Part shown: piece by piece, positions 1,055 to 51,017 of the stretch
Numbering within the stretch: position 1 is the stretch's first letter
How the letters are laid out: each line of letters starts with the position of its first letter
From: Candidatus Scalinduaceae bacterium
GTDB taxonomy: Bacteria > Planctomycetota > Brocadiia > Brocadiales > Scalinduaceae
Assembly: GCA_046759445.1 (NCBI GenBank)
Contig: JBHICG010000013.1
Location: forward strand, 1-63,034
DNA: 63,034 nt
Direction of reading: 5' to 3'
Notes under the pieces: generated by a model
The model's input: only the letters and a program-made list of their open reading frames with translations
Told to the model about the DNA's origin: nothing
Databases searched by the model: none
Made by a program: the position numbers and the translations under genes

Positions 1055-1240
1055 CAGGTTGTCCGAGAATAAGCAAAATACCATTTTTTGTCATTCTGAC
1101 CCCGCTTCTTGCTTTCGCAAGAAAGCAGCGGGGTCAGAATCTGTAATTATAAGTACTTACAGAAGTATTAGATTCCGCCCCCATTCCTAGCTTACGCAAG
1201 GAAGCTATGGGGGGCGGAATGACAATTCTCGAACAGCCTG
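1055..1240. mobile_element. MITE (186 bp) with 16-bp TIRs and 4-bp TSD, carrying two GTCATTC/GAATGAC REP-type hairpins
   Basis: Ends CAGGTTGTCCGAGAAT ... ATTCTCGAACAGCCTG (14/16 inverted). TCAA directly flanks both ends (1051-1054, 1241-1244). Confidence 0.8.
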
Positions 1241-1304
1241 TCAAGGTGTGACCATAATTACCTCCAAAAACTGTCAAAATGTTTTTTAAAAATATATTTT
1301 TACC

Positions 1305-4907: not shown

Positions 4908-5340
4908 AAAAATTCTCCTTTAGCCGACTATACTTCTCAAAGAGGATCATCGCACTCTTACCTTTGAGACAGTCCAATATGGTTGATACCGAATACTTCT
5001 ACTTCGGCGAGATACTTAAACACATATGGATATGATCCAAGTATACCTTTGCTTCCAATATTTTTATGCCTTTGTACTCGCATAATCAATGCAAGATTAT
5101 CCCCCACCTCTCAGCGTAATTTCCATATATGATTTTCTCCTTCGCTTCGGCACCCATACCACATGATATTTACACTCCCACACGGTGTGAGATAAGCTTT
5201 TTTTCATATCTGATGCTCCTTTCCTATAGATCGTGCCACAGAGATAGCTTCGGCGCTATTCTACGGTAGGAGCATTTTCTTAGTAAATACTTCAGCATAG
5301 CTTTTGTTATTCTCCCCAGCTTAACTGGGGGCTTAATTCA
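4908..5340 (-). pseudogene. tnpA: IS200/IS605-family Y1 transposase (tnpA) relic with left-end hairpin
   Basis: From ATG 5207: MKKSLSHTVWECKYHVVWVPKRRRK..YGKLR..LCEYKG..DHIHM (HuH motif)..LKGKSAMILFEKYSRL. Contains internal stops and frameshifts and is truncated before the catalytic Tyr. Hairpin CCCCAG-CTTAA-CTGGGG at 5314-5330. Confidence 0.9.
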
Positions 5341-5369
5341 GAAGTTACCACCACCCGATTAAACAGGAA

Positions 5370-8300: not shown

Positions 8301-8918
8301 GGAAATGATGATGTAATGATACTCTGTGTTGGGCAATAGACCTGTTACTTGTAAGGTGTGACTTATGACCATTAGAGAATCTAACACAGTGTTTCCGTAA
8401 CTGGTATCTAACCCGTAGTCGACTTGCGAATCTGCCGGTTCATCGGTCGTCCACGTAATCGTCACGCTGTTGTCGGTTAAACTCTGAAGAGTGATGGCTG
8501 AAATAACTGGCGGTGTGGTATCGGGCGCGGACACTATCTCCACTGTCAGCCGGCTCTCGCCCGTTGCCTGTCCGTCTGTCACGCGTAATATCCAGTCATA
8601 TATCTTGGGCGCGGAACTTAGAGCATAGTCGAAACTCACCGGCGTCACTGTACCGCTTCCATTGCCAAAAAGAATCTCGGCCCCGCCATTGACCGTGTAG
8701 AGCCACTCCCAGCTTAACGGATCGCCGTCAGGGTCACTGGCCGAACCTGTGTACGTCACGGTCGTCCCTTCAGTTACCTGCAGCCCTGCTTTCGCAGAAT
8801 CCGCATCGGTGGCATCATGGCTAACAGCACTTACTACCGGCGCGCGGTTTACGTTATTCACCGTTATCGTAATATCTTCACTATCGGTTAATGCGCCGTC
8901 GCTTACTTCAAAGTGCAC
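5370..8918 (-). CDS. C-terminal fragment of giant secreted protein (Ig/cadherin-like, FN3 x3, DUF5060-like, TIM-barrel-like, collagen-binding-like, Ig, C-terminal domain); frame open upstream to ~9140
   Basis: No signal peptide or RBS. The frame continues upstream (PVNNAPQLNLIGDKNVNEGESLNVNITASDIDGD...) to the G7 run at 9136-9142. Strongly paralogous to 1305-4907. Confidence 0.8.
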   Translation of the reverse strand: MHFEVSDGALTDSEDITITVNNVNRAPVVSAVSHDATDADSAKAGLQVTEGTTVTYTGSASDPDGDPLSWEWLYTVNGGAEILFGNGSGTVTPVSFDYALSSAPKIYDWILRVTDGQATGESRLTVEIVSAPDTTPPVISAITLQSLTDNSVTITWTTDEPADSQVDYGLDTSYGNTVLDSLMVISHTLQVTGLLPNTEYHYIIISRDGSGNMAVSNDLTFTTLSLADITAPTIPQNLSAQPLSQSEINLSWDASTDPSTGSGQVSGVAGYRVYRDGVEIVTTMTTSYPDSGLTPGTSYAYAVSAFDAAGNESGRSPSVLAITQSSIQNQVGLYDVFETQVTNTKNYSNPFDYTVIELQATFTAPSGKTVDFFGFYDGDGNGGQTGNVWKLRFMPDETSTWSYNYTWTDGTPGGSGSFEVVDTGLPGHLKIATDNPWYFETARGEPFHFRGCGFMFWHKDIDQISGFKNFSFTAKLEEYKAAIQSDIDSVGCNFIYTNANSDREQVSHPESWWIDGSESGKKIFDLTVWTAMDDLLTFLKDQRVYAMPWSAFFRQGQFYAFSDEKVFLRYWVARMAPYYNWNGWSLTWEWPEVLSESQVTQVMSQVKDWNPFSTLLTSHDSSRSSFTNWMSFSARQRQSRTVFTGNSRSAGQHGGIQGPFINMPIIGAEDIWEDLDGGFGNPRNETEVRRGAWGGMLAGVMPIYTEFGTRNKSSFGQGEGKDDVKRMFDFFYSKTQYRQYQKLNSLVSSSARQIASGIPGQEYLVYDEDGGSITIDLSGTASSDAFSVLWYDPKDNGIEQAGGSVNGGASRTLTSPFSSDSVLLLGGVPPDATPPTIPQNLSATAKSESQIDFTWQAADDPESGISKYNIYRDGANVGQPTTTSFSDAGLDEGTTYTYEVSAVNGAGLESARSTPISATTLADTIPPTITSVSVSDNAVWVTVVFSEPVEQVSAEEISNYDIDNGITISVASLGTDLKTVTLTTSPHSEGTTYTLTVNNIQDRASTPNVITANTQATYTFVAQLIISNLTVVNGKIYEVVEDGLQNGALAYIDRSFTYSTVPASVQGTTYIKTANNDKSSTGTSFFTFDVNQDVTVLVAHDNRITPKPSWMSPFTDTGEDIVTTDTALSLFAKDFPAGAVVLGGNEGSGNSMYTVVILGQGSGSTPPDTTPPADPVGLRIVQ
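8127..8147 (-). repeat. In-frame REP-like insertion encoding PSTGSGQ
   Basis: CCTTCGACAGGTTCAGGGCAA lies inside an FN3 loop (ASTD-PSTGSGQ-VSGVAGY). The sibling FN3 domains read AADDPESGISKY. Confidence 0.55.
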
Positions 8919-9103
8919 ACTTGAATAAGAACCTGATTGGGTATTGTCCGGTGTCCATGTGAATAATCCCGTGCCGCCGCCGTTATCCGTAAAACCCGCT
9001 CCTTGAGGCAGATTTGAAGCTGAAAGTGTCAGGGTATCTCCATCTATATCACTCGCTGTAATATTAACATTTAAGCTCTCCCCTTCATTAACGTTCTTAT
9101 CCC

Positions 9104-12100
9104 CTATAAGATTGAGTTGAGGGGCATTGTTAACAGGGGGGGCGGCGGAGATTCACTCCTTCCCGCGTTATAATTCAGCGTCACTTCCTGGGCCGTTAAA
9201 GCTTTATCGTAAATGGCGACCAGATAAATCTTTCCAAGCCAGGGACGGTTCGCACTGTTTTCATTACCCAGAATCAATGGCCATGAGGTGTTCCACGTCG
9301 AGAAATCTCCGGCAACCGCCACGGTAGTTGACTGCAGTTGCCCGTCAAAGTAAACGTGTTTATTCTGACCGTCAAACGTAACCACGATGTGTCTCGGTGA
9401 TGTTGTGTCAAGAAATGCCCCGGGAACGGTTAATTGATCCCAGCCTGTGACGCTTGTGTGTGTACGAAAGCTTGCCCGAGTGTCTGACTGCCCAAGATGG
9501 GCATTTAGCTGACTGTCCGAAGTACCATTCGACAATGTAACTATTCTCGCAGGGCCTCCCTGGGTCATATTCAATGGCGTCACCCATGCCTCCATGCTCA
9601 ATTGATTTGCGGCCATGATACGGTTATAAAGCTTTGACGCATCGATGCTTTTGATGATACTGCTGCTTGTTATTTCAATCCCGTTTCTGCCCGTGAGCCA
9701 GTTAACCGCACCGCTTTGAACGGATAGATCGACAACCGGCGTTATGCCGCTGATATCTTTGATCAGGCTGCCAGTGCCCTCATTAAAATCGTATAAAGCC
9801 ACCAACCCATCTCCCACACGTGGTAAGAATGTGTAGGTCGCCTGTGTATTCGTGGCAATCACATTAGGAGTGCTAGCCCGATCCTGAATATTATTCACCG
9901 TTACAGTATAAGTAATCCCTTCGCTGTGCAAACTTGTAGTCAGAGTTACGGTTTTAAGGTCTGAACCTAATGATGCGCCTGATACGATAATTCCGTTGTC
10001 AATGCTATAGTTTGATGCATCTTCTGCGCTTGTCTGCTCCACCGGCTTGCTGAAGACAACTGTGACCTCAGTGGCATTGCCGCTTGCGCTGACTGAGGTT
10101 ATGGTGGGTGGAGTGGTATCTGCTAAAGTTGTCGCTGAAACAGACGCACTTCTTGCCGATTTCAATCCGGCGCCGTTGACCGCCAGCACCTCGTAGGTAT
10201 AAGTGGTGCCTTCACTAAGTCCTGTGTCTGAAAATGAGGTTGTAATGGATTGCCCTACATTAACGCCGTCTCTGTAAATAGTGTATTTGCTGATACCAGA
10301 TTCCGGGTCATCTGCTGCCTGCCAGGTAATATCAATCCGCGATTCGCTGACAGCGCTCGCGTTGAGACCTTGCGGTATGCCCGGAGCAGTATCGTCAGGC
10401 GGTGGCGGCGGTGTGGTCAAACAGGTAAAGCCATTAATTTCGGGATGGGCTGTGTCATCCGTACACGGCGCAACAGCCCCGGCAATCGCTATCCCGTATT
10501 TCTCCCAGTTTTCTTGGTTTGTGAGTCCTCCTTCAGGGGAACCCACAAGGTTTCCACCAGACAAAGGTACAATGAAACTTGGATGCTGTTGTTTATAAAA
10601 CACCTGAAAATTGTTGTTAAGAATTCCATTGTAATCTTCCACAAACACCTCATCGCGCTGGATCAGGTTGGCTGAGCCATTCTGCGAACTATAATCCATG
10701 GAAATATTATATGGAGTGCTGCCCAATTTCCAGCCTGTTATTAAACCAAATTTTACGTTCCTGATAATGAGCTTTTTGGGTAATCTTTGCTTTCCGTCAG
10801 GGCCGTTTCCTGGAGCACCGAGGGTTCTAACAGAAATATTAACCCGATTTCTGAGATAGGAATCTTCTATAATCGTGGTCGTACTTCCACGCGTTGCCGA
10901 TCCTCCGTAATAAGGATCGATAATGCCTGTGCTATATCCCTGGATGTCAGCGTTCCTTATAATGATATCCTGACCAAGATAATCGCCAAACCACATCCCT
11001 AGAGCAAATTCGTGAAGGTTGGAAAGGAAACTTTTATCCCCCCTGGCCACGAAACCATCAAAAGTAACGTTACTCATCGGATAGCCATAAAACCCATATT
11101 GGTAAATGTGCCATAACCGAAAATCCTTGACCACGCTTTCGCCGGCATTTTGAGCTTGATTGCCCCATGAGTTGAGATACCAGATAGTAAACCCTCTTCG
11201 TGAGCCATATACCTCATTGCCGGCAAATTCCAGGATAGGAATGGAATGTGGACTTTTGGCTGTATATTCCGCTTTCACCGTAGTATCTGCACCCTGAAAA
11301 TTTGGGATATTGACTGTTCCACCCAGAGGTGCAGCATTTTGTCCTACATAAATATTATATCCATAATTCGCTGTGACATTGGCCGCTACATTATCCCGGA
11401 CATAATTGTTCGGCCCCCTAAACCAGAATGCTGTGCCTTGACGAGGTGTCCCGCGAGAACCACTCCCATGCACGCGTACCACAAAGTTTTTTTCAAAAAC
11501 ATTTTTTGTTTCTGATGCATCAACTGTGGCTATACCTACACCGAAGATGTTATACACCACATTCTGGCTGATCAAACCATAATGGCTGTCATGAATGGTC
11601 ATGCCCCAGGCAAACGGATTATCCTGGCTGCCGCCGTCTATGGCATTGCCAACCACAGTGAACTGAAAACCATTGGCCGGACTGCTTACCGGGCCATACA
11701 GATGATGGGTATGAAACGCAAAACGCATATTTTGGTTTGAGCCGATATGTGTGACATTGCCGTTTGAATCAAATGTCGTGTTATCGACTGGATTATTCGT
11801 AGTACGTCCGAGATCTTTAAACTGCACATAACGAATGTCCACAGTTGAGCGGTTTCCAATCAGAGTGTGTCCTCTGGTGCCTTGCGGATTTTCTGAACGG
11901 ATTGTGATATTTCTCGTGAGATTCCCAACGTGGGGTAGAAATTCCAGGATATCATCCCCGTCTCTTGCCCCTAAATGGTCAAAGGCGAGCGGTGTCGTCA
12001 GAGTAATGGTCTGACCAGAGATGGCTTGCACGGTGAGTTCTTCCCACTCTTTAAAAAATGTAGCAGTACTTGAAGCTGATCCTTGCCTTGTTCCAGGCAG

Positions 12101-28085: not shown

Positions 28086-29432
28086 ATGACTGATAAAAAT
28101 TTACTTAAAGAAACTGCGATAGATATAGTTAAACGCCTCAGGGAGAAGGGCTATAACGCATTGTTTGCAGGTGGTTGTGTTCGTGATATGCTGATGGGCA
28201 GTGTGCCGGAGGATTACGATATTGCCACAGACGCTAGTCCCAAGGATATTTTAAGTATTTTCAAAAAGACTGTTCCAGTGGGAGTCCACTATGGAGTTAT
28301 TTTAGTTGTAGAGAATGATTTTCAATTTGAGGTTGCTACGTTCAGATCTGACGGAACATATACTAATGGTCGGCACCCTGATACGGTGACATTCTGTGAT
28401 GCAAAGGGCGATGCCCTGAGGCGGGATTTTACCATAAACGGAATGTTTTATGACCCGATTAATAATAAGTGTTTTGATTATGTTGGAGGTATGAGCGACA
28501 TAAAGGCTCATCTTATCAGGGCTATCGGTAACCCATCTGAGAGATTTAACGAAGACAGGTTGCGTATGATAAGGGCCGTTCGTTTTGCATGCAGATTTAA
28601 CTATGAAATTGAAGGCCGAACAGCAGAAGCCATAATAAAATTTCATGATAGAGTTTCATCCGTAAGTGCAGAAAGGATTAGAGAAGAACTCGAAAAGATA
28701 TTAACAGGCCCTAATCCACATACAGGTATCAAAATGATGGACGAACTTAATATCCTGAAAGAAATACTTCCAGAGGTAACGGCTATGAAGGGTGTGGAGC
28801 AACCTGACAACTACCATCCAGAGGGTGATGTGTTCACGCATACGCTGCTTACGTTATCAGAGTTAGACACCTCTCGAAAGTCTACTGGTTTCCATGGTGG
28901 GTGGGAGTTGGCTATGGCAGCACTCCTTCATGATATTGGCAAACCCGTAACCTTCGAGATTGCAGATCGTATAAGATTTAATAATCATGATAATATCGGC
29001 GCTAAGATGGCTGAAAAGATATGCGACCGCTTAAGGATGTCAAATGCAGAAAAGGAACGCATAGCATGGCTGGTAAAAAACCATCTGTATTTAAGGAATG
29101 CACAGAAGATGAGGATAAGTAAGCTTAAGAGGCTTTTCGCTCATGAAGGATATCCCGAACTTGCAGAATTATACAGGATAGATTCTCTTTCAAGTACTGG
29201 AAATCTGGATGATTATGTTTTTTGTCAGGAGATGTATGAGGAATTGCAGGAAGAGGAGGTAAAACCTGAGCCTCTTATTACGGGTCATGATTTGATAGCA
29301 TTGGGACTAAAACCAGGCCCGATCTTCTCAAAGATTTTGGATGCAATAAAAGATGAACAGTTAGAAAATAAGATTACGACAAAGGAACAGGCAATAAAAA
29401 GGGCAAAGGAACTCGTAGACTTGAACTCCTGA
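28086..29432 (+). CDS. cca: CCA tRNA nucleotidyltransferase with HD domain
   Basis: GGCVRD, DYDIAT, RRDFTIN, EDRLRMIRAVRF, HPEGDVFTH, LLHDIGK. CC- versus CCA-adding specificity not determinable. Confidence 0.9.
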   Translation: MTDKNLLKETAIDIVKRLREKGYNALFAGGCVRDMLMGSVPEDYDIATDASPKDILSIFKKTVPVGVHYGVILVVENDFQFEVATFRSDGTYTNGRHPDTVTFCDAKGDALRRDFTINGMFYDPINNKCFDYVGGMSDIKAHLIRAIGNPSERFNEDRLRMIRAVRFACRFNYEIEGRTAEAIIKFHDRVSSVSAERIREELEKILTGPNPHTGIKMMDELNILKEILPEVTAMKGVEQPDNYHPEGDVFTHTLLTLSELDTSRKSTGFHGGWELAMAALLHDIGKPVTFEIADRIRFNNHDNIGAKMAEKICDRLRMSNAEKERIAWLVKNHLYLRNAQKMRISKLKRLFAHEGYPELAELYRIDSLSSTGNLDDYVFCQEMYEELQEEEVKPEPLITGHDLIALGLKPGPIFSKILDAIKDEQLENKITTKEQAIKRAKELVDLNS

Positions 29433-29473
29433 AATTAATATCTCAACATATCACAAACAAATTACAATATCAA

Positions 29474-29608
29474 ATGGTCAAAAACAAGCCACATGATTTA
29501 GAAGAAAGAACGTTAGAATTTGCCAAAGGTATAATTAGGTTATGTAAGAAATTATCAAAAGACATAATCAATATAAAGCTCATCGGTCAGTTAGTCGATT
29601 ATCATTGA
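29474..29608 (+). pseudogene. Truncated four-helix-bundle (TIGR02436-like) protein flanked by a 15-bp inverted repeat
   Basis: MVKNKPHDLEERTLEFAKGIIRLCKKLSKDIINIKLIGQLV then stop. AACAAATTACAATAT (29456-29470) and its perfect reverse complement (29777-29791). Confidence 0.8.
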
Positions 29609-29661
29609 TAAATCAAAATAGATATCAGTTTTGGTATTGTAATTTTGTAATTGTATATTGC

Positions 29662-29761
29662 CTGCCCCGTTAGATAATATAATTTCATTGTATGTTGACA
29701 TATTTGAAAGAATTACTATTATGTCGGCCACGCCCCTATAAAAACCATCTAATGGGGTGAA
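29662..29761. mobile_element. CCCCGT-TIR mini-MITE
   Basis: GCCCCGTTAGAT ... ATCTAATGGGGT, inserted in a TTGTAAT-type repeat run. Confidence 0.6.
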
Positions 29762-29880
29762 TAAGTTGTGGTTTGTATATTGTAATTTGTTGCTTATCAT
29801 AATAAAGAACGTTCAATTGACAAATATTTTACCATAAGTGGACAAGATTGAAGAAGTAAAGTAGCGATAGGAGCTTATAG

Positions 29881-30801
29881 TTGATATCGCAGTTAACTGA
29901 GGAAACATTTGAACAGATACTTTCTAAAGAATTATCTCATATATATGACTTACAGTTTGCGAATTACGATTCCATTAAAATTCCAAATCTAAAATCCCAA
30001 GTCGTAAATCTCAAATCTCATATTGACCTTAGACATATCTCTTTTATAGACCCCTATGGCATGGTTGGCTTACTTGAGATGGGGGAATTTTTAAAATCAA
30101 AGGGCATACAAAAAACCATTTATCTCCCTGAATCGGAAGAAGTAATCAAGTACCTTGAGAGGATGGACTTCTTTAAATATGCAAGGGGATATTTTAAGCT
30201 CAAACCGCAAGAATTAAAGATTCCTGATAAGTACTCAAGAAGTTCTTTTTCTGATGTCCTGCTTGAGATAACTCCTATAGAAAAATCAGATGACATCCAT
30301 TTTATAGTAGGCCTAGTAAAGGATAGATCAAATAAAATACTTAAGAGGCATCTTCATTATGATGAGCGAGCTATAAATGGTTTTATAGTTGCGCTTTCAG
30401 AGGTATGTCAGAATATCGTTGAACATAGTGAGAATACAGGATTTGTAGGAATCCAGAAGTATCACTTCAATAATATCAACAAGAATGTCGTAAAGATTGC
30501 CGTGATGGATTTAGGAATAGGTTTTAAAAATTCACTTAAAACAAGATTTGATATCAGAGATGACATAGATGCCATAGAAAGAGCACTCTTTCATGGAGCA
30601 TCGAGATATTCAGATACGGGGCGCGGACACGGTTTGGCGTCAGTAAGACGTTTTATAAAGCAATGGAATGGTAGAATCTCCATCCGTTCAGGAACAGCGA
30701 GTCTTTCAATAATTCCTAAGTGGGCTTGGGGTAATGAGAAAGAACAAAATCTTACTCATTTCCCTGGAGCTCAGATAAACCTCCTCCTACCTGAAATTTA
30801 A
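29881..30801 (+). CDS. STAS-like plus HATPase_c (anti-sigma kinase-like) protein
   Basis: IDLRHISFIDPYG (STAS-like). N box ALSEVCQNIVEHS, G1 VMDLGIGF, G2 GRGHGL, terminal FPGAQI. Confidence 0.82.
   Translation: MISQLTEETFEQILSKELSHIYDLQFANYDSIKIPNLKSQVVNLKSHIDLRHISFIDPYGMVGLLEMGEFLKSKGIQKTIYLPESEEVIKYLERMDFFKYARGYFKLKPQELKIPDKYSRSSFSDVLLEITPIEKSDDIHFIVGLVKDRSNKILKRHLHYDERAINGFIVALSEVCQNIVEHSENTGFVGIQKYHFNNINKNVVKIAVMDLGIGFKNSLKTRFDIRDDIDAIERALFHGASRYSDTGRGHGLASVRRFIKQWNGRISIRSGTASLSIIPKWAWGNEKEQNLTHFPGAQINLLLPEI
29934..30023 (+). repeat. In-frame 81-bp heptamer-repeat insertion with 9-bp direct repeat
   Basis: ATCTCATAT at 29934-29942 and 30015-30023. Internal heptamers AAATTCC AAATCTA AAATCCC AAGTCGT AAATCTC AAATCTC face an inverted NNGATTT-like arm. 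Confidence 0.7.
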
Positions 30802-30825
30802 TTCTCATTTTCCTCAATTTTCTAT

Positions 30826-30867
30826 TTGACAAGTATCATAATTTATGATTCAATTGATTCAATTGAA
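30826..30867 (+). promoter_or_regulatory. Putative promoter with tandem palindromic operator TTCAATTGA x2
   Basis: TTGACA at 30826-30831. TTCAATTGATTCAATTGAA at 30849-30867, overlapping the expected -10 position. Confidence 0.45.
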
Positions 30868-30959
30868 TTGCCTTATAAAATGTGTAGAGTGCAAATGAGC
30901 CAAATAATATTGTGTATTTTGAGAGATTAAATAAGAAGAGAAGTATAAGAGAAAATTAG

Positions 30960-32948
30960 ATGAAAGAAAAGAAGGTTGTTAATGAAATAAGAAAACATAT
31001 GAAGAAGAATATACGACAGATGAAAATCAAATACATCACACAAGTTACAGAACTTGTTTCGTGTGGTGTAAAAGATAAAGAAATACGGAGTGTAATAAGT
31101 AATAGTCAAACAAAAATTGAGAAGGAGATAAATTACCTTTTAAAGAATAGAGGCAAAATAATTGAAATATTAAAGCTTTTGTTTTCTGAAAATATTCCAA
31201 TTAGTTCTAATTTTTATAGAAAACTATCAGATATTGAATATTACCTTGGATTTAAACCTATTGCTAATAAATTGACAGGACACTTATGGATTGAAGCCTA
31301 TAAGCTTTTACCAAAACGTAATGCACTGGAATTATTGCAACTTTTAGTTGAGGATGAGAGCATTGATATTTTCCCTCGAATCAGGTCTCTTCCCATTTTC
31401 CTATCTGAAGTAGAAATATCTTCCGATTTTGCCTCCAGCTGGTTCTTTTCGATGGCAGAAAAAATTGGTGCTGACTTAGCAGGTGGTAATTTTTTTAAAG
31501 CAGTGAATGAATATGCATTTAATTTTCCACAATCTGGATTAAAAGTATTTGAACAGTATGTATCTGAAGGTTTGGACAACCTTAGATTGAATCTTTCCGC
31601 AATAATTCTTGGTGCACTTCGAGCAAGCTCAGAAAAAAGGCTTATTCAAAAAGAAATTATAGAAGGATGGGAAGAGAAACTTATCAATAGTCCTCAAACA
31701 GAATCGAGGCTATGTTACCACAAGTCTTGGATAACCTCGTTCTGGAGAGGGATAATTTCCATTGAACAATTAGAATCTAAATTAGCAAAAATGATGGAAG
31801 GAACTCAAGAAGAAATAGACGAGGCTTTTTATGTTCTTTACAAATGTTTACTCAATCAGTTAACAAGTGAAGTGTTTGTGAAATTTTCCATGCAGTGGTT
31901 CAATAAAAATGCGTCAGGCAAGATACCGCCACTTGCAAAATATTGCGTTGTGAATTCAATGCTTAGATTATGTGATGTCCGTGAAGCCAAAAGTAGATTG
32001 ATAAACATCAGCGACGCAAACAAACTGATTATTAAGGTACAACCAATACCTCAGGAAAATAACGGTACGTGGAGTGATATTGAATATTATTTAATTGATA
32101 GATTGCATGAAGACAAAAAGTCATTTGCTGATATTTTAAATCTACTCAATGAAGCTAATCCAGAAACATTATTTAAGAAGTTTAGAAGTAATGAATTTGA
32201 TTATCTAACGTCTAAATTATCTAAATCGGACGCAAGCTGGTTGATAACTAATTTAATATTTTCACAAGATGCTAAAAAAAGAAAACTTGGCAATATCTTA
32301 TTTCAGAAAATAAAGATTAATCAATTCTCAAGTGAGATAGTAGAAAAAACGGATGAAACGCAAATGAGTATAGTTCTTTGGGAGTTCATACGTAGACCGT
32401 TTTTAGGTGCCGAGGTTTCAAGATTCTTAATTATGTTAGAACCCAGATATCGTATCTGTAGTACTAAAATGCAAGAAGAATACAAGCGTGAAATGGTAAT
32501 GCAGGCAATTAATTATCCAGGAGAATGTTTAGAAAATTGGAAGAAAATGAGAAACCCATCTAAACTGCTAAAAAGTGTTATAGAGTCTGCAGAGAAGTAT
32601 TTTGAAAACTTGAAGAAAACAAGGAATTCGCCTGCAAATAGCTTTTCATTTCCTGAACTCAATCAATCTGCTAAAAAGGGATATAGAGAGTACTCCAGAA
32701 AAATATCAGAAGATGCCCATAAAACATCAATATTATCGAGGCTGGCTAAACATATAGACATTATGTATGGCGATCAATGGAGCATAATGGCTCAGGGCAA
32801 ATTGGGCGATCCAACTCCTTTTAAGGAAGTATCGCATTCTATTGAAGCTCCAAGGCTTGAAGAAATCGATCCTGAAGGGATGGTATTAAGAAAAGTACAG
32901 GCTAATACTCAAATAAAAGAGGCCGAAAAAGGGAGAACTAACAAATGA
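30960..32948 (+). CDS. Helical-repeat-like hypothetical protein, putative defence system component A (Olokun OloA-like?)
   Basis: 662 aa, apparently all-alpha, very AT-rich. C-terminal SHSIEAPRLEEIDPEG. Overlaps the next gene by 4 bp. Confidence 0.6.
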   Translation: MKEKKVVNEIRKHMKKNIRQMKIKYITQVTELVSCGVKDKEIRSVISNSQTKIEKEINYLLKNRGKIIEILKLLFSENIPISSNFYRKLSDIEYYLGFKPIANKLTGHLWIEAYKLLPKRNALELLQLLVEDESIDIFPRIRSLPIFLSEVEISSDFASSWFFSMAEKIGADLAGGNFFKAVNEYAFNFPQSGLKVFEQYVSEGLDNLRLNLSAIILGALRASSEKRLIQKEIIEGWEEKLINSPQTESRLCYHKSWITSFWRGIISIEQLESKLAKMMEGTQEEIDEAFYVLYKCLLNQLTSEVFVKFSMQWFNKNASGKIPPLAKYCVVNSMLRLCDVREAKSRLINISDANKLIIKVQPIPQENNGTWSDIEYYLIDRLHEDKKSFADILNLLNEANPETLFKKFRSNEFDYLTSKLSKSDASWLITNLIFSQDAKKRKLGNILFQKIKINQFSSEIVEKTDETQMSIVLWEFIRRPFLGAEVSRFLIMLEPRYRICSTKMQEEYKREMVMQAINYPGECLENWKKMRNPSKLLKSVIESAEKYFENLKKTRNSPANSFSFPELNQSAKKGYREYSRKISEDAHKTSILSRLAKHIDIMYGDQWSIMAQGKLGDPTPFKEVSHSIEAPRLEEIDPEGMVLRKVQANTQIKEAEKGRTNK

Positions 32949-34765
32949 GTACTGAATCACTTGATAGTTTTTTAACAGATTATGTTATGAGCTTGGTCGA
33001 AAGAACGAGGATAGAAAATGGAGTAGTTAAAATTGGGTTTGACTGGATAATTTATAACTTAGCTCTTGCCAATAGCTGGACACCTGTAAGATTACCCTTC
33101 TTTAGACGATCAAATGTCTTGGCAGCAAAAACAAAAACTGAAGCTGAATTTGGGATAGATATGATGTTCAGTCTTCCAACTGGTAAGGGGTTAGTCATTT
33201 TTGTATTAAAGGATGAAGAACTCAATAATAAAAATTGGACTTCTCAGAGCTTCGAATCAGATTTACGAAAGGCTGCAACTCCTGATCTAACCCCAAAAGA
33301 ATTGGAATTAATAAGAGAAGTAAAAGTAATCCTTGCATACAACAAAGATGAGGACAGAAATGGAATTGAACTATTTGATCGACTAACAAACTCTTTGGGG
33401 ACAAAGATTGGAGATAAAGTGTCACTATCTTTTGAGCGGTGGAACCTTTCTAGAATAACAGAAATGGCTAAAGATTATTTGATTTCTCCAGACTTATTAC
33501 CGCAGCATCTATCAAGCCAATTTAGCTACATTTGCTCTCAAATGGCTGACTTTGATTATGGGACAATAGAGTGGGAAAGTCAACTTATCCCTAACTGGAA
33601 GTATTTTCTGAGAAAGTTGTTAAAAGAGCCTATTGATGAAAGAAAGCTAAGACTTGTTCCTGTTACCTTGCTAATATTGTATCACTACAAAAAGCAAAGC
33701 CCCAACTCATATCCAGGATGGATTGACTTGATTGAATGGGCAATACTATCTCTTTGGGAGTGCTATAGAAACTTGAAAACCAGAAAACTGAAAAAAATAG
33801 TTATCGATATTTGGATGCATTTCTATATAAATGAACTAGAAAGGTATTTTTTGAAAGTATCTCATGTTTTAACTACAGAACATGGCTTGCACGCCAGTGG
33901 AAAAGGTGTTGGTCTTGTTCCAATAAATGATGCATATATGGCTTACTGGCACATTGGACGATTAGGTATTCTAACTCTTGCTCCGCAGGAATTCACAGAC
34001 GAAGAAAATAAAGAAGGTAAAGAGATAATTATAAACATAATAAATCGATCTGCCGATTGGATTATCAGATGTCTTAGAGTAAATCCTGCTACAACAAGAC
34101 CATTAATAGATTTAAATCATATAGAATTGTTCTTAGTTTGGTTAATACTATGGCAGTCGGGTAGAGATGAAGAAATTTTTAAATGGCTTTCTCAACTTGA
34201 ATCTTGCCTGCTTGTTAGGAGAATTGGAAAAACCAACATACCATTCATTGAAGCAAGAAATAGGATAGATTTAGTAGCTGAATGTGCAGCAACTTCTGAG
34301 AAGCCTCCAGAGTATACTGATAACAGTTCATATCTGTTGTTAATGATTTTGGAGCTTTGTTTTTCATTAGAAGATAAATATAGGGATGAACTTCTAGATA
34401 GATATTATCGAAGGATCGTTAAAGGAATGAGCGATGATGGAAAATCTTTAGCTGATAAAGAAATAGATTTAATTGGATGGTCTTCTCCTGACAATTGGGG
34501 TCAAAGGATTTTACGTGAACATGTTACTGATGGGATAGCTATAACAATAAATAATTTTGAAACTATCTCTGGAGGGAACAAATCCTTATCGGAAAGAATA
34601 AAGGGGTTTGTTGATCGATCAAGTGAAAAATTTCCATCTAAGATACCGGCAAATATACCTCGTGCCGTATTGATTTTAGCTTGTATTAAACATCGTTCTC
34701 CACTTCCCTCCGAATTCTGGCGTGGAACAATATTTACAAGAGATAAAAAAATAAAGAAGTTTTGA
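32945..34765 (+). CDS. PD-(D/E)XK-like N-terminal nuclease domain protein, putative defence component B (OloB-like?)
   Basis: EFGIDM...VIFVLKD fits the Mrr-like GxD...xxK arrangement. WNLSRI closes the domain and a long helical C-terminus follows. Confidence 0.6.
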   Translation: MSTESLDSFLTDYVMSLVERTRIENGVVKIGFDWIIYNLALANSWTPVRLPFFRRSNVLAAKTKTEAEFGIDMMFSLPTGKGLVIFVLKDEELNNKNWTSQSFESDLRKAATPDLTPKELELIREVKVILAYNKDEDRNGIELFDRLTNSLGTKIGDKVSLSFERWNLSRITEMAKDYLISPDLLPQHLSSQFSYICSQMADFDYGTIEWESQLIPNWKYFLRKLLKEPIDERKLRLVPVTLLILYHYKKQSPNSYPGWIDLIEWAILSLWECYRNLKTRKLKKIVIDIWMHFYINELERYFLKVSHVLTTEHGLHASGKGVGLVPINDAYMAYWHIGRLGILTLAPQEFTDEENKEGKEIIINIINRSADWIIRCLRVNPATTRPLIDLNHIELFLVWLILWQSGRDEEIFKWLSQLESCLLVRRIGKTNIPFIEARNRIDLVAECAATSEKPPEYTDNSSYLLLMILELCFSLEDKYRDELLDRYYRRIVKGMSDDGKSLADKEIDLIGWSSPDNWGQRILREHVTDGIAITINNFETISGGNKSLSERIKGFVDRSSEKFPSKIPANIPRAVLILACIKHRSPLPSEFWRGTIFTRDKKIKKF

Positions 34766-34934
34766 ATGCAGCTTTAATGATTTAAAGAATTCTATACAAC
34801 CAAATCTTATAAGATCGTAACCAACAAAATTATAAAAGCTTAGGAGAAATGGGCATTATTTATGATTAAGGTAATTCATATTTGCTATGGTCAGTTTTTT
34901 TAGACAAAAAATAGACACTATGAGGTAAGAAAGT

Positions 34935-35057
34935 ATGTCAAAAGCAAACAAACAATTAGAACTTTTTCCAGTGAAAAAATCTTTAAAGATAAAATCAAAG
35001 TTTTCACCAAAGAATCAGATAACAATTTATAAGGTGATTGATTTCTTTAACTATTAA
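34935..35057 (+). pseudogene. N-terminal stub of a DNA methyltransferase
   Basis: MSKANKQLELFPVKK...NQITIYK then GTGATTG. A one-base shift gives YKGDx, echoing the ILNGDC start of the downstream MTase. Confidence 0.4.
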
Positions 35058-35140
35058 GATGAATTTCCAAATAAACAATGTTTATCGATGTTTTAAAAGC
35101 GTGGATTACCGATTGACAATTTGTATTTAAGGAAAAATGA

Positions 35141-35998
35141 ATGGAAATATCAGCAAAAATATTAAATGGTGATTGCACTGAAAAATTAAAAGAAATAGAG
35201 GATAATTCAATTGATCTTATTTTCACTTCTCCACCTTATGCGGATCAACGCAAGTGTACATACGGTGGTGTACATCCGGATAAATATGTTGAATGGTTTT
35301 TGCCAATTTCGAAGGAGTTGTTAAGAGTTCTAAAACCAACCGGTACATTCATTCTGAATATAAAAGAACGTGTTGTTAATGGTGAGCGGCATACGTATGT
35401 ATTGGAGTTAATTATGGAAATGCGTAAACAAGGTTGGCTTTGGACAGAGGAATTTATATGGCATAAAAAAAATTGTTATCCTGGTAAATGGCCTAACCGT
35501 TTCAGGGATGCTTGGGAAAGACTGCTTCAATTCAACAAAAACAAAAAATTTAAGATGTTACAAGAAGCTGTTATGGTACCAATGGGTGAGTGGGCAAAAA
35601 CAAGGCTAAATAATTTAAGTGAAACTGACAAAATACGAGATGAATCTAGGGCGGGAAGTGGATTTGGAAAAAATGTTTCTAATTGGATAAAAAGAAATAA
35701 GGCCTATCCAACAAATGTGTTAAAGATGGCAACTGAGTGTAATAATAAGAATCATAGTGCTGTTTTTCCAGAATCTCTTCCAGAATGGTTTATTAAACTC
35801 TTTACAGAAAAAGAAGATTGGGTGCTAGATCCTTTCATGGGCTCTGGAACGACAAATAAGGTAGCACAGCGTTTAAGAAGAAATTCCATTGGGATAGATA
35901 TTCAACAAAGTTATTACAAAATGGTTAAGAAACAAATTCGATCAAAGGAATTATTTTTGTTAGAAGAAAGTAAAGAATATGGAAAAGATAAGAATTGA
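35141..35998 (+). CDS. Site-specific N4-cytosine/N6-adenine DNA methyltransferase (beta class)
   Basis: IDLIFTSPPY catalytic motif precedes the VLDPFMGSGTT SAM motif; HSAVFP. Confidence 0.95.
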   Translation: MEISAKILNGDCTEKLKEIEDNSIDLIFTSPPYADQRKCTYGGVHPDKYVEWFLPISKELLRVLKPTGTFILNIKERVVNGERHTYVLELIMEMRKQGWLWTEEFIWHKKNCYPGKWPNRFRDAWERLLQFNKNKKFKMLQEAVMVPMGEWAKTRLNNLSETDKIRDESRAGSGFGKNVSNWIKRNKAYPTNVLKMATECNNKNHSAVFPESLPEWFIKLFTEKEDWVLDPFMGSGTTNKVAQRLRRNSIGIDIQQSYYKMVKKQIRSKELFLLEESKEYGKDKN

Positions 35999-36725
35999 CG
36001 ATGTAAAAAAATACGTTGTAAGTAACATAGGTAGTTTTCATTCTAAACGTTTACAAAATCTAGAAGAACTTAAATTGAGTAAAATCCTTAAAAGAAAGAA
36101 TCCATATCTATTTAAAGCCAAAAATATTTTGACCGCCCAGGACTTGGTCAAAACACTTCTCGATGCCCATTTGTCATCTCAAGAAGAAACAATTTTTGGT
36201 AATTTCTTAGAGGGACTAGCAATTTTTATTAACAGAAAAGTTTATGGTGGTAGAAAATCTTCAGCAGAGGGAATTGACTTAGAGTTTGAAGACAATGCTA
36301 TTAATTATATTGTTACAATCAAATCTGGCCCCAATTGGGGTAATAGCGAACAGATTAAAAAGATGAGAGACAATTTCAAAAAAGCAAAACGAATATTGCG
36401 AACAAGTAATTCCAAACTTCAAATTATAGCAATCAACGGTTGTTGTTATGGAAGAGATAATAAACCTGATAAAGGTGATTATTTCAAATATTGCGGTCAA
36501 AAATTTTGGGAATTTATTTCTGACAATGGGGACCTGTATTTAGAGATAATTGAACCATTAGGACATAAAGCCAAGAAAAGGAATGAAGATTTTATCGAAA
36601 AATATTCTCAAATTATAAATAAGTTTACGCTTGAGTTTAGCCAGGTTTATTGCGTTGATGGGAAAATAGACTGGGATGTTTTGGTGAAATTTAACTCTTC
36701 TATTTCTAAACCCGTAAAGAAGTAA
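35979..36725 (+). CDS. Type II restriction endonuclease (PmeII/EcoO109I-like)
   Basis: LKRKNPYLFKAK, SSQEETIFGNFLE, GIDLEF, IKSGPNWGN, CGQKFWEFIS. Overlaps the MTase gene. Confidence 0.85.
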   Translation: MEKIRIDDVKKYVVSNIGSFHSKRLQNLEELKLSKILKRKNPYLFKAKNILTAQDLVKTLLDAHLSSQEETIFGNFLEGLAIFINRKVYGGRKSSAEGIDLEFEDNAINYIVTIKSGPNWGNSEQIKKMRDNFKKAKRILRTSNSKLQIIAINGCCYGRDNKPDKGDYFKYCGQKFWEFISDNGDLYLEIIEPLGHKAKKRNEDFIEKYSQIINKFTLEFSQVYCVDGKIDWDVLVKFNSSISKPVKK

Positions 36726-36766
36726 CATCTAAACAATCTTGAGGTGTTTTAGCATGTAATTATGGA

Positions 36767-37069
36767 TTGGAGGCAGATACTATGTGTGTGGAAAGTGTAG
36801 CAACTTTAGATCACGAAAGATTATATCTTGCAACTTTTGAATTCGTTAGTGGTGAATATGTACAGATGTTTGAAAAGGCGTTTTATGCAAAGAACGAAGA
36901 AGATTTAGAGAATAAAATCCATGAATACCTTATTAATTACTATGGTGAAGGTAATACTTCAGAGATAGATGGGGATGTTTATTATTACTGGAATGGTGAA
37001 GTCGCAGTTAAAGAACATGGATGGCGGGAAATCACAAACTTTGAACAACTTGTAAACAAACTTCTTTAA
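36767..37069 (+). CDS. Small acidic hypothetical protein (probable start ATG 36782)
   Basis: GGAGG precedes ATG 36782. E/D/Y-rich. Confidence 0.65.
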   Translation: MEADTMCVESVATLDHERLYLATFEFVSGEYVQMFEKAFYAKNEEDLENKIHEYLINYYGEGNTSEIDGDVYYYWNGEVAVKEHGWREITNFEQLVNKLL

Positions 37070-37098
37070 TCTCGTTAAAGAAAAGGACATGTTGACCA

Positions 37099-37386
37099 AT
37101 GAATGGAGAGTTTATTATGAGCAAAAAATATGTTACTAAAAATACCGGTGTTACTACTTATCAATTACCTCAACCATGTATAGCAAAATATATAGTTGTA
37201 GTAGTAGATAGGGGTATAGCATGCGAAGTCAACTATTTTGATTCACTGAAAGAAGCCAAAAGGACTTTTGGAGAAATAGCCAATGATTATGGTTATGAAC
37301 CCGAAGAGATAAATGGATCGGATTATTATGATATCTCAATATGGGAATGGACAGAAAATAGGTATGAAAAAATTTATGGATATTGA
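37099..37386 (+). CDS. Small hypothetical protein with acidic C-terminus
   Basis: GGAG precedes internal ATG (MSKKY). Co-oriented with the island. Confidence 0.6.
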   Translation: MNGEFIMSKKYVTKNTGVTTYQLPQPCIAKYIVVVVDRGIACEVNYFDSLKEAKRTFGEIANDYGYEPEEINGSDYYDISIWEWTENRYEKIYGY

Positions 37387-37955
37387 TAAGAGATATGCCT
37401 AAATACGACCTTTACAAAATATTAAAAGAAGAACTTAAGAATGGCTCAAGTGACCTTGTTACAAGACCATCAGGACAGGTGATAAGAAGACGAATAGAGG
37501 AGGATATTGTAAAAGAAGGTGATAGGGTAGTAGTTGCCCTGGATTTTTCAAAGATTGGCGTAATAGATTATTCATGTGCTGATGAAATTGTTGCAAAGCT
37601 TGTCTCTCGTTTGCTAGGTGGAGAATATGGTGATAAATATATCGTTCTTACCGGTCTTAATGAAAACCAGAAGGAAAATATTGAGGTTGCCCTTGAGAGA
37701 AAGGGCCTTGCCATAATGGCAAAGACAAGAAACAATAAGAAAATCTTTTTGGGAAATATCAATAACTACCTCAAACAAACATTAGACCTCATCCTTGAAA
37801 AAGATAAGATCACTGCCAGGGAACTTTCAGATATCATGAAACTTGAAGCCAATACAAGTGGCACAAGACTCCTAAACCTTCATAAAAAACGCCTCGTGAA
37901 AAGGACTGAAGAAATAATGAATGGAGGAAGAGTTTGGATTTATGAGAGTGTATAA
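37383..37955 (+). CDS. STAS-like (DUF4325-like) plus winged-helix regulator
   Basis: VTRPSGQVIR, ALDFSKIGVIDYSCADEIV (STAS-like with Ser). C-terminal TARELSD..LEANTSGTRLLNLHKKRLV wHTH. Likely start MPKYD. Confidence 0.8.
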   Translation: MIRDMPKYDLYKILKEELKNGSSDLVTRPSGQVIRRRIEEDIVKEGDRVVVALDFSKIGVIDYSCADEIVAKLVSRLLGGEYGDKYIVLTGLNENQKENIEVALERKGLAIMAKTRNNKKIFLGNINNYLKQTLDLILEKDKITARELSDIMKLEANTSGTRLLNLHKKRLVKRTEEIMNGGRVWIYESV

Positions 37956-37987: not shown

Positions 37988-38383
37988 ATGAAAAATGATA
38001 AAAGCTTTAGGAGTTTTGAAGAATTAGATTGCTGGAATGCTTGCAGAGAGTTAAGACAATATATTGCGAAATTAGTTAAACAATACCCTAAAGATGAAAA
38101 ATACAGAATTGTTGATAATATACTTAGGGCTGCACGATCTACGACACATAACATTGCAGAGGGATTTGGCCGTTTCCATTATCAAGAGAATATTCAATTT
38201 TGCAGGCATTCACGTGGTTCTCTATATGAATTGAAAGACCAAATTATCTGTTCCCTTGATGAGGGATTCATCAATGATGAGGAGTATAAAAAGTGTTTAG
38301 ATTTAATTAATAGTGCAAGTGCTTTACTTAATGGTTATATTAATTATCTTAAAAGAAAAAAACAAATAACAGATAACAAATAA
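37988..38383 (+). CDS. Four-helix-bundle protein (TIGR02436-like)
   Basis: SFEELDCW, PKDEKY, RAARSTTHNIAEGFGR, SRGSLYE. Ends in ATAACA/ATAACT heptamers (38365-38392). Confidence 0.92.
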   Translation: MKNDKSFRSFEELDCWNACRELRQYIAKLVKQYPKDEKYRIVDNILRAARSTTHNIAEGFGRFHYQENIQFCRHSRGSLYELKDQIICSLDEGFINDEEYKKCLDLINSASALLNGYINYLKRKKQITDNK

Positions 38384-50943: not shown

Positions 50944-51017
50944 TGGCTGGGGTACCAGGATTCGAACCTGGACTAAATGATCCAGAGTCACTCGTGCTAC
51001 CGTTACACTATACCCCA
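50944..51017 (-). tRNA. tRNA-Gln(CUG)
   Basis: TGGGGTATAGTGTAACGGTAGCACGAGTGACTCTGGATCATTTAGTCCAGGTTCGAATCCTGGTACCCCAGCCA. Anticodon CTG, T-loop GTTCGAATC, encoded CCA. Confidence 0.95.

Follow-up and report, generated by a model that had tools for sequence, protein, structure and literature searches.

A probable Olokun defence system of a deeply divergent subfamily in a Candidatus Scalinduaceae bacterium

Two coupled genes of a Candidatus Scalinduaceae bacterium very probably encode an Olokun anti-phage defence system (oloA–oloB), and their sequences place them in a deeply divergent subfamily that occurs mainly in uncultivated environmental bacteria. The genes lie in a stretch of 63,034 nucleotides (contig JBHICG010000013.1 of assembly GCA_046759445.1), hereafter the window. 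The pair is a recognisable, known type of defence system and no new kind; according to a review (PMC12926258), the first report of Olokun was that of Millman et al. 2022. The features discussed below are as follows.

30960..32948, + strand: oloA, intact ORF of 662 aa, predicted HEAT/adaptin-like alpha-solenoid
32598..32888, + strand: OloA C-terminal tail, residues 547–643, predicted anchor to OloB (complex model, conservation)
32945..32948, + strand: ATGA start/stop overlap of the oloA TGA and the oloB ATG, read directly
32945..34765, + strand: oloB, intact ORF of 606 aa, N-terminal alpha/beta nuclease-like domain and C-terminal helical domain
32945..33502, + strand: OloB N-terminal domain, residues 1–186, putative PD-(D/E)XK/Mrr-like nuclease (AF2, conservation)
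32999–33001, + strand: OloB E19, conserved in 27/27 sequences (12 clade and 15 canonical)
33158–33160, + strand: OloB D72, conserved in 27/27 of the same set
33209–33211, + strand: OloB K89, conserved in 26/27 of the same set
33503..34762, + strand: OloB helical domain, residues 187–606, predicted to dock the OloA tail (AF2, complex model)
35141–35998, + strand: N6_N4 DNA methylase (PF01555, E 5e-46; PADLOC MTase_II, E 1.8e-49)
35979–36725, + strand: EcoO109I-type endonuclease (PF14511, E 9e-94)

The oloA–oloB locus and its divergence from canonical Olokun

The initial annotation described coupled ORFs of 662 and 606 aa with no housekeeping motifs, directly upstream of a restriction-modification (R-M) system. 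Both ORFs are present on the same strand with a 4-nt overlap, neither protein matches a Pfam family at E≤0.1 or an NCBIfam family at E≤0.001, and a type II R-M pair (35141..36725, + strand) follows oloB as the next genes. The position of Met21 in OloA is the first residue in 19 of 21 aligned OloA homologs, and the true oloA start may therefore be 31020 (642 aa) instead of 30960. A toxin-antitoxin reading was rejected, both proteins being far above the typical size of such components, as was that of a mobile-element gene pair, since transposase and integrase domains are absent from the ORFs between 24109 and 44367 in the Pfam search. Rfam and tRNA scans of the whole window returned a single tRNA-Gln (50944–51017).

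Assignment to Olokun was made by a PADLOC HMM scan of both proteins. OloA matches model PDLC03925 with residues 143–642 on model positions 86–583 of 596 (E 7.5e-18, 63.1 bits), and OloB matches PDLC03926 with residues 63–596 on positions 38–554 of 556 (E 7.3e-28, 95.9 bits). Because both models match over nearly their full length, we regard the pair as Olokun; at E≤0.1 neither protein hits any further PADLOC family. The initial annotation had wavered between a divergent Olokun-like system and an undescribed one, and had proposed such a scan to decide. The matches, the canonical gene order and the 4-nt overlap agree with the former, and the option of an undescribed system is set aside by the same two matches. 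It had also held that a strong OloAB hit would take away novelty, and by that measure most of it is gone.

The distance to previously recognised members is nevertheless large. On the PADLOC OloB model, canonical proteins score 286–650 bits and proteins of the clade that contains the window sequence 41–102 bits; on the OloA model, the two canonical proteins reach 349 and 356 bits, compared with 43–88 bits for the clade. A profile built from clade OloB gives 440–825 bits inside the clade and 75–146 bits for canonical proteins. A canonical Rhizobium locus (L054; 349 bits for OloA and 650 bits for OloB) has the same gene order and an overlap of 4 nt annotated at 5001–5004. The window OloB shares 18% pairwise identity with a canonical OloB, and the window OloA gave no significant BLASTP match to canonical OloA, so that the function of the clade proteins could have drifted from that of the canonical ones, to judge from sequence. 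For the reading of the clade as a second Olokun type, we note that OloA has diverged past pairwise recognition.

In an OloB tree of hand-chosen sequences (12 clade and 15 canonical), the two groups are split with support of 100/100 by a long branch of 1.37 + 1.18 substitutions per site. Two inserts, at residues 22–31 and 47–65, are found in OloB of the clade only, although the insert at 22–31 is missing from P0183, the member that branches deepest in the clade, and the features thus grade into each other. Both window proteins are also longer than the canonical ones (662/606 aa versus about 576/581 aa, a difference of about 25–85 aa). The clade hosts are mainly uncultivated members of Planctomycetota, Verrucomicrobiota, Latescibacterota, Ignavibacteria, Nitrospirota and Acidobacteriota, with one Nealsonbacteria MAG and one Thorarchaeota MAG in addition, whereas the canonical matches on plasmids come from Klebsiella, Rhizobium, Agrobacterium and Tolypothrix.

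The linkage of the two genes is retained in other genomes: among 52 related loci, 50 have oloA directly upstream of oloB and on its strand. Of the other two, L051 ends at a contig edge, and in L002 a partial upstream ORF matches neither an OloA tail nor a middle gene. Forty-four of the 50 linked loci have the two-gene arrangement, and in six a third gene, which encodes the OloB nuclease domain on its own, stands between oloA and oloB. In two loci an HTH-HipA kinase is fused to OloA. Co-localisation with defence islands, suggested in the initial annotation as a check, is seen both in the window, where the R-M pair adjoins the locus, and elsewhere: PADLOC defence families (E≤1e-20, within three ORFs) occur in 19 of 52 loci and 37 of 263 neighbour ORFs, as a raw count without background control. 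They include AbiE, type I R-M, Gabija, Azaca, DISARM-like, ThsB, SIR2-pAgo, Avs2, Lamassu and PifA. A defence-island setting is also a feature of Olokun.

The OloA solenoid, its tail and the predicted complex

The helical-repeat character that the initial annotation had assigned to the first protein is borne out by structure prediction. In its AF2 model (pLDDT 84.2), OloA is a HEAT-like alpha-solenoid, all-helical across residues 20–555, and Foldseek aligned it to HEAT-repeat proteins such as SF3B1 and PP2A-A (E 3e-4 to 1e-3, TM 0.2–0.29). Pfam Adaptin_N was undetected in the window OloA, in nine further clade OloA and in two canonical OloA. The solenoid is followed by a tail that is modelled at low confidence in the monomer (mean pLDDT 43–56 for 10-residue blocks from 551 to 630), and that carries the conserved motifs SPANSFSF and PRLE-IDPEG. 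Invariant or near-invariant tail residues are S557, P558, A559, F562, F564, E629, P631–E634, P638 and E639. BLASTP aligns no part of OloA other than this tail to a canonical OloA, with a C-terminal E-x-P-x-L...DP-x-G motif common to both, and the tail is the only region matched in OloA of L038 and L047.

Prediction of the complex, another proposal of the initial annotation, supports binding of OloA to OloB through this tail on the helical domain. A 1:1 model of OloA residues 281–662 with OloB gave ipSAE values of 0.84/0.84/0.82 compared with 0.01 for the best of three controls, with at least 88% of contacts in agreement between runs and a partner pLDDT of at least 82; of 157 solved complexes, 116 attain the mark used for this score, as do 2 of 215 mismatched pairs. 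All contacts on the OloA side of the model fall within residues 547–578 and 635–643, and the OloB interface consists of residues 204–212, 252–258, 301–336, 381–385 and 420–452. Conservation is marginally higher in the OloA interface than elsewhere (0.684 versus 0.619; 622 of 10000 random sets were as high), with no excess in the OloB interface (0.600 versus 0.644 for other residues).

In the literature searched, a single report on OloA/OloB biochemistry was found (bioRxiv 10.1101/2025.07.10.664194). This preprint describes PfOlokun as a complex of ~278 kDa, modelled as 2:2, and terms OloB a PD-(D/E)XK nuclease. [quoted passage not shown] That the two window proteins are predicted to form a complex is in line with the published complex. 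A discrepancy is noted with respect to the contact region, which the preprint assigns to an "N-terminal helical domain" of OloB; in the window protein and in canonical sequences alike, the conserved nuclease motif stands at the N-terminus, with the helical domain after it.

The putative nuclease site of OloB

The OloB model (AF2; pLDDT 85.3, pTM 0.87) has an N-terminal domain with helices at residues 3–16, 32–42, 95–110 and 138–151, and strands at 73–76, 82–89, 125–132 and 159–166. The order of these elements fits a restriction-endonuclease-like alpha-beta-beta-beta-alpha-beta core in the model, for which the fold matches are weak. Foldseek with the whole model returned no match at E≤1e-3 in either PDB or BFVD; the PDB list is mostly helical-repeat noise caused by the C-terminal domain, and short BFVD alignments to phage "Restriction endonuclease" proteins (ranks 12, 17 and 26; probability 0.98–1.00) remained weak at E 0.07–0.14. 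A profile of 28 N-terminal domains matched no PDB sequence at E≤10, and none of the 28 domains matched a nuclease family in Pfam at E≤10. An unexplained match to Pfam VipE in three of the 28 (best 2e-5) was taken as spurious. ESM Atlas has no structure for the protein, and searches with residues 1–186 gave look-alikes scoring 0.82–0.88 (all below 0.9, and leads only), among them clusters at 0.82–0.87 in which 11–22% of members carry Mrr_cat or Mrr_cat_2. The domain is a putative Mrr-like nuclease of PD-(D/E)XK type, with a fold that the fold and profile searches leave unconfirmed.

Mrr-type domains (Mrr_cat, PF04471/PF13156) are a PD-(D/E)XK variant with a D...QxK arrangement. OloB resembles these in having a glutamate on a helix, GxD at the start of a strand, a hairpin, and [Q/V]xK on the following strand. 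It differs in the absence of significant matches to Pfam nuclease families or PDB chains, in the valine that replaces glutamine in the window clade, and in the fusion of the domain to a 420-aa helical domain.

The E..GID..VLK motif pointed out in the initial annotation is present near the N-terminus of OloB (E66, E68, G70-I-D72, and V87-L-K89-D-E) and is conserved across 35 clade homologs, with no variation at G70, D72, L88 and K89 and conservation of at least 90% at E66, E68, V87, D90 and E91. E19 and N133 are also invariant in these 35 proteins, and N133 is kept in 25/27 of the combined clade and canonical set. An N-terminal E...GxD...xK motif followed by a helical domain is likewise the arrangement of canonical OloB. 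In the AF2 model, D72 directly precedes the strand 73–76 and K89 ends the strand 82–89.

The acidic residue of the (D/E)-x-K triad is absent from the window OloB, which has V87 two residues before the lysine. This position is V9/A2/S1 in the 12 clade proteins and Q8/V5/T2 in the 15 canonical ones. The catalytic position called atypical in the initial annotation is non-acidic in 15/15 canonical OloB too, and in these sequences the non-acidic residue is a family-wide variant, not a degeneration of the clade. Because of this, and because both groups keep E19, D72 and K89, the site does not appear degenerate as had been proposed. E19 on helix 1 is likely the third ligand. What does distinguish the clade in this region is two conserved acidic pairs at 90–91 (K89-D90-E91) and 135–136 (N133-K-D135-E136), where canonical OloB has an invariant G91 (15/15) and a hydrophobic residue at 136; together with the replacement of Q87 by valine, these new pairs would make up the remodelled site of a second Olokun type.

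Alternative readings, possible mechanism and implications

Catalytically dead OloB proteins in the clade, serving as scaffold or sensor with a truly degenerate PD-(D/E)XK domain while another effector does the killing, appear improbable. V87 does occupy the middle position of the triad, which is classically acidic, and all matches to nuclease families and folds fell short of significance, but the invariance of E19, G70, D72, K89 and N133 in 35 clade proteins, and their conservation in canonical OloB, is unexpected for a dead site. Furthermore, the canonical family has the same non-acidic position, and PfOlokun cleaves DNA in vitro according to the preprint. A third conserved effector gene is missing from the window, and the two-gene loci predominate. 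An alternative that we consider possible, although at less than an even chance, is that of a functionally distinct sister system ("Olokun type II"), in which the same chassis would carry a remodelled active site and respond to another trigger or act on another substrate. The tree split and its long branch speak for this, as do the bimodal scores with clade profile and PADLOC model alike, the inserts, acidic pairs and greater lengths, and the clade-specific third gene and HipA-kinase fusion. On the other hand, the architecture, gene order, overlap, core catalytic residues and OloA tail motif are common to the canonical system, valine at position 87 is also found in 5/15 canonical proteins, and P0183 shows that the features intergrade. 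Tentatively, and at that same level, the clade may represent an undescribed second Olokun type, wide across uncultivated phyla, with a diverged OloA and accessories of its own that would go with another trigger or regulation; no description of Olokun subtypes was found in the literature searched.

It is very unlikely that oloA–oloB and the adjacent R-M system form one composite working unit. They share a strand across a gap of 375 bp, and no terminator-like site lies between them on the + strand in a simple consensus scan. That scan, however, found fewer sites than shuffled sequence does (22 promoter-like sites versus 32.8 in shuffles for 29400–37200, with one terminator-like site, on the minus strand), and gives nothing useful on operon boundaries. 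Neighbours vary between loci and a conserved R-M partner is missing in most; methylase or restriction components within three ORFs are found in 8/52 loci (L001, L004, L007, L022, L028, L032, L036 and L039), and are of differing types. We take the R-M pair as a neighbour within a small defence island, independent of Olokun and no part of it.

For the divergent Olokun system that we favour, the models suggest that the conserved OloA tail would clamp the OloB helical domain into a stable complex. By analogy with the PfOlokun work, this may be a 2:2 heterotetramer with two OloB nuclease domains side by side, which would cut phage DNA in preference to host DNA, E19, D72 and K89 serving metal-dependent hydrolysis. 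The OloA solenoid is a putative sensing or gating part that could restrain the nuclease until infection. The preprint (bioRxiv 10.1101/2025.07.10.664194) groups Hachiman HamAB, AbpAB and Gabija with Olokun; as in these systems, a PD-(D/E)XK or other nuclease that targets DNA would be complexed with a large partner, but in the window this partner is a solenoid without a Pfam match to an NTPase or helicase family at E≤0.1.

Olokun is a validated defence system with a poorly understood mechanism. A subfamily at 18% identity can be viewed as a natural mutagenesis screen, in which the residues kept across both groups (E19, D33, G70, D72, K89, W98, N133 and W166 of OloB, and the OloA tail motif) would mark the functionally essential parts, and it shows a non-acidic residue before the catalytic lysine to be normal for the family. 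For annotation, current Olokun HMMs reach the clade at low scores, so that it would be lost under stricter cut-offs. A concrete surface for mutation is offered by the contact predicted for the OloA tail on the OloB helical domain, and the stand-alone nuclease-domain gene and HipA-kinase fusions may provide leads on how Olokun is regulated.

Olokun gene pair and its distance from canonical members

The initial annotation described two neighboring genes directly upstream of a restriction-modification (R-M) system. Both open reading frames are present on the same (+) strand, with an ATGA overlap in which the ATG of oloB is shared with the TGA of oloA, and the type II R-M pair follows oloB after a gap of 375 bp.

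30960–32948, + strand: oloA, ORF of 662 aa (P0001)
32945–34765, + strand: oloB, ORF of 606 aa (P0002)
35141–35998: N6/N4 methylase of the R-M pair (PF01555, E 5e-46)
35979–36725: EcoO109I-type endonuclease of the R-M pair (PF14511, E 9e-94)

Because 19 of the 21 aligned OloA homologs start at the position of Met21, the true start of oloA may be 31020. Neither protein has a match in Pfam at E ≤ 0.1 or in NCBIfam at E ≤ 0.001. Among the PADLOC models, P0001 matches OloA (PDLC03925; E 7.5e-18, 63 bits, residues 143–642 on positions 86–583 of 596) and P0002 matches OloB (PDLC03926; E 7.3e-28, 95.9 bits, residues 63–596 on positions 38–554 of 556), and since no other family is matched by either at E ≤ 0.1, the likeness to Olokun suggested in the initial annotation proves right. 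Olokun was reportedly first described by Millman et al. in 2022, and existing HMMs for the system still detect the window pair.

In the canonical locus on a Rhizobium phaseoli plasmid (L054), two genes encoding 576 and 581 aa, in this order, are annotated with a 4-nt overlap like that of the window pair, and their products score 349 (OloA) and 650 bits (OloB) on the PADLOC models. For the canonical locus on a Tolypothrix plasmid (L053), the scores are 356 and 554 bits. A profile of the window OloB family matched 376 out of 1.84 billion representative proteins at E ≤ 1e-3. Near-full-length OloB proteins of the clade that includes the window pair score 440–825 bits on this profile, whereas the next full-length proteins (~555 aa) score just 75–146 bits. 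All 15 of the latter that were tested with PADLOC are canonical OloB (286–550 bits); five clade representatives tested alongside reach 58–78 bits on the PADLOC OloB model, and four clade OloB from genome loci 41–102 bits. Between window OloB and the Rhizobium protein, pairwise identity is 18% across 562 columns (BLASTP E 1e-4). For OloA, the BLASTP match to the canonical protein is not significant (E 0.1), and the sole aligned part is a short C-terminal E-x-P-x-L...DP-x-G segment. A maximum-likelihood tree was built from OloB sequences picked by length and score (12 from the clade and 15 canonical), which are not an exhaustive sample. The two groups split in it with 100/100 support, and the branches that separate them measure 1.37 and 1.18 substitutions per site. 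On the basis of the low cross-scores, the low identity and the tree split, the window pair is assigned to a deeply divergent subfamily of Olokun.

Linkage of the two genes and predicted complex

A locus scan with one genome per species gave 52 loci with OloB relatives (36–67% identity), from Nitrospirota, Latescibacterota, Planctomycetota, Verrucomicrobiota, Ignavibacteria, Acidobacteriota, Gemmatimonadota, Bacteroidota, Chloroflexota, Spirochaetota and one Nealsonbacteria MAG. The linkage of the two genes extends to these genomes, with a co-oriented match to the OloA HMM directly upstream of OloB in 50 of the 52 loci. In L051, OloB is truncated by the contig start, and the partial ORF within the 269 nt of upstream sequence in L002 has no likeness to the OloA tail or to the middle gene of the variant loci (see below). 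In a Planctomycetaceae MAG (L049:8064–11841), oloA and oloB are each split into several overlapping ORF fragments, as a result of either decay or misassembly. Homologs of OloB (P0016, 65% identity) and OloA (P0137, 48% identity) are also neighbors by NCBI locus tag in a Candidatus Thorarchaeota MAG; the clade may thus occur in Asgard archaea, with a binning error being possible on a contig of 5123 bases.

In 6 of the 50 linked loci, oloA and oloB are separated by an additional gene of 216–244 aa, which is absent from the window.

L001:9292–10011, middle gene
L007:9334–9984, middle gene
L023:9259–9984, middle gene
L025:9290–9976, middle gene
L031:8125–8859, middle gene
L036:5454–6155, middle gene

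All six middle genes encode a GKD...Y[IV]VK pattern and have no Pfam match, and two of them match the first ~160 positions of PADLOC OloB (E 3.3e-9 and 4.8e-6). By sequence, the middle gene appears to encode the nuclease-like domain of OloB as a separate protein. In another variant, found in two loci titled uncultured Opitutus sp. (L027:6639–10004 and L037:6630–10004), OloA is 1121–1124 aa long and has an N-terminal fusion to an HTH and a HipA_C kinase domain (PF07804, E 1e-22 and 3e-22), behind which the PADLOC OloA model is matched (E 3e-19 and 2e-25). A regulatory or sensor add-on is a possible role for the fusion.

The AF2 model of OloA (22-sequence alignment; pLDDT 84.2, pTM 0.75) is an unbroken α-solenoid from about residue 20 to 555, followed by a poorly ordered C-terminal tail. 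Its Foldseek matches, with no Olokun structure among them, are SF3B1, the PP2A A subunit, karyopherins and condensin HEAT subunits (E 3e-4 and above, TM 0.2–0.29), and judged from the model this is a generic solenoid likeness. OloB (35-sequence alignment; pLDDT 85.3, pTM 0.87) is predicted to contain an α/β domain (1–180) and a helical domain (187–600).

A complex of OloA 281–662 with full-length OloB, modelled from our own alignments, scores 0.84/0.84/0.82 compared with 0.01 for the best of three controls; the runs share at least 88% of contacts, with partner pLDDT of at least 82. Of 157 solved complexes, 116 attain the score mark, as do 2 of 215 mismatched pairs; these counts are a rough guide here, where our own alignments were used. 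The model supports OloA–OloB binding. All OloA contacts are in the tail (547–578 and 635–643), the site of the conserved SPANSFSF and IDPEG motifs, and all OloB contacts are in the helical domain (204–452). Residue conservation gives marginal support to this interface: the mean majority fraction of the OloA contacts is 0.684 versus 0.619 elsewhere, with 622 of 10000 random sets as high, and the OloB contacts show no enrichment (0.600 versus 0.644). Passages of the preprint on PfOlokun likewise place OloA on a helical domain of OloB, but label this domain N-terminal (10.1101/2025.07.10.664194). In our alignments, OloB of both the clade and the canonical subfamily has the nuclease motif in its N-terminal part.

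Nuclease-like domain and putative active site of OloB

The E..GID..VLK motif noted in the initial annotation is real and retained across an alignment of 35 OloB homologs, where Gly70, Asp72, Leu88 and Lys89 are invariant and Glu66, Glu68, Val87, Asp90 and Glu91 are at least 90% conserved. In the model, Asp72 immediately precedes strand 73–76 and Lys89 is at the end of strand 82–89, a placement expected for a restriction-endonuclease-like core. The whole OloB model has no Foldseek match at E ≤ 1e-3 in PDB or BFVD, the N-domain profile has none among PDB sequences at E ≤ 10, and none of the 28 aligned OloB N-domains matches a Pfam nuclease family. Weak yet coherent hints come from BFVD, with alignments of 168–181 columns to phage “Restriction endonuclease” proteins (ranks 12, 17 and 26; probability 0.98–1.00, E 0.07–0.14), and from look-alike clusters in the Atlas, some with Mrr_cat or Mrr_cat_2 in 11–22% of members (scores 0.82–0.87, below the 0.9 line). 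A restriction-endonuclease-like fold is the likely prediction for the N-domain. VipE (PF20876) is matched by 3 of the 28 N-domains, all from related loci and not including the window domain (best E 2e-5); this match is probably spurious.

In classical PD-(D/E)XK enzymes, an Asp or Glu is found two residues before the Lys. The corresponding residue is Val, Ala or Ser in the clade (9/2/1) and Gln, Val or Thr in canonical OloB (8/5/2), according to a joint alignment of 27 sequences. The non-acidic position is thus family-wide, and the earlier description of the window domain as degenerate does not hold in the sense of decay of this copy. Glu19, at the end of helix 1, and Asp72 are present in all 27 sequences, Lys89 in 26 and Asn133 in 25. 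Compared with canonical OloB, the clade has inserts at residues 22–31 and 47–65, the latter of low confidence in the AF2 model, and acidic pairs in K89-D90-E91 and N133-K-D135-E136. The canonical counterparts are an invariant Gly at 91 and a hydrophobic residue at 136.

OloB is called a PD-(D/E)XK nuclease in the PfOlokun preprint, passages of which describe degradation of T7, SEC 17 (as printed) and SPO1 genomic DNA by the complex, nicking of plasmid, and no degradation of E. coli genomic or plasmid DNA (10.1101/2025.07.10.664194). The same passages state that the OloAB complex is lost in purification upon mutation of the OloB active site.

Genomic setting and proposed mode of action

In all 52 loci, the ORFs flanking the pair (≥ 90 aa, a maximum of three per side) were compared with PADLOC. 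As a descriptive count, defense families are matched at E ≤ 1e-20 by 37 of 263 ORFs in 19 loci, and include AbiEi/AbiEii, type I R-M, DISARM-like DrmMI/DrmD, Gabija, Azaca, ThsB, SoFic, SIR2-pAgo, Avs2, Lamassu, PifA, bSEFIR and several PDC candidates; the first batch at E ≤ 1e-10 adds one locus (L005, AbiP, 2.5e-11). The R-M genes adjoin oloB in the window, and a functional tie between the two pairs could be considered. Because the neighbors of OloAB differ between loci, a fixed tie is disfavored, and we regard this explanation as highly improbable. G+C is 0.43–0.51 in window positions 1–12000 and 0.32–0.42 in 12001–63034, and the Olokun/R-M region (0.32–0.35) does not contrast with its surroundings.

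Just upstream of oloA, a 306-aa HATPase_c protein (29881–30801; PF02518, E 6e-8) matches positions 36–248 in the N-terminal part of the 1750-position PADLOC DrmA model (E 6.6e-15), and downstream of the R-M pair is a DUF4325 STAS-like protein (37383–37955; PF14213, E 2e-5). As ATPase/kinase and STAS-like proteins are frequent partners, the Olokun and R-M pairs may lie between two halves of another module. Two co-oriented ORFs of 100 and 95 aa (36767–37386) separate the R-M pair from the DUF4325 gene and match no family in Pfam, PADLOC or NCBIfam, and the 95-aa ORF ends 4 nt inside the DUF4325 ORF. At the island edge, a 131-aa four-helix-bundle protein (37988–38383; PF05635 23S_rRNA_IVP, E 1.6e-28; TIGR02436, E 2.6e-26) weakly resembles DGR Avd (E 1e-4). 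Among the canonical loci, that of Tolypothrix sp. PCC 7910 (L053:1724–6740) has two ISAs1-family transposase fragments (3808–4895) between oloA and oloB, and the operon is therefore probably disrupted. The Rhizobium operon is preceded by a GIY-YIG nuclease gene and followed by genes for sce7726-family, sce7725-family and RES-family NAD+ phosphorylase proteins (L054:7025–9855), another defense-island-like setting.

In the mode of action that we propose, the OloA tail would bind the helical domain of OloB to form the OloA–OloB complex, and OloB would cut DNA by means of Glu19, Asp72, Lys89 and a metal ion. Paired nuclease domains could give double-strand breaks, and the OloA solenoid may sense infection or gate the nuclease. 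For PfOlokun, the preprint passages describe a ~278 kDa complex with a modelled 2:2 stoichiometry, which cleaves certain phage DNAs selectively (10.1101/2025.07.10.664194). In our literature search, mechanistic work on OloA and OloB together was found only in that preprint, and no description of Olokun subtypes was found; the original 2022 description of the system is cited in a passage of a review (PMC12926258). Since the system has been described and existing models detect the locus, the window locus is, as judged from its genes, an Olokun system and thus a known kind of defense system. That the clade constitutes a functionally distinct second type of Olokun is conceivable, though less likely than not.
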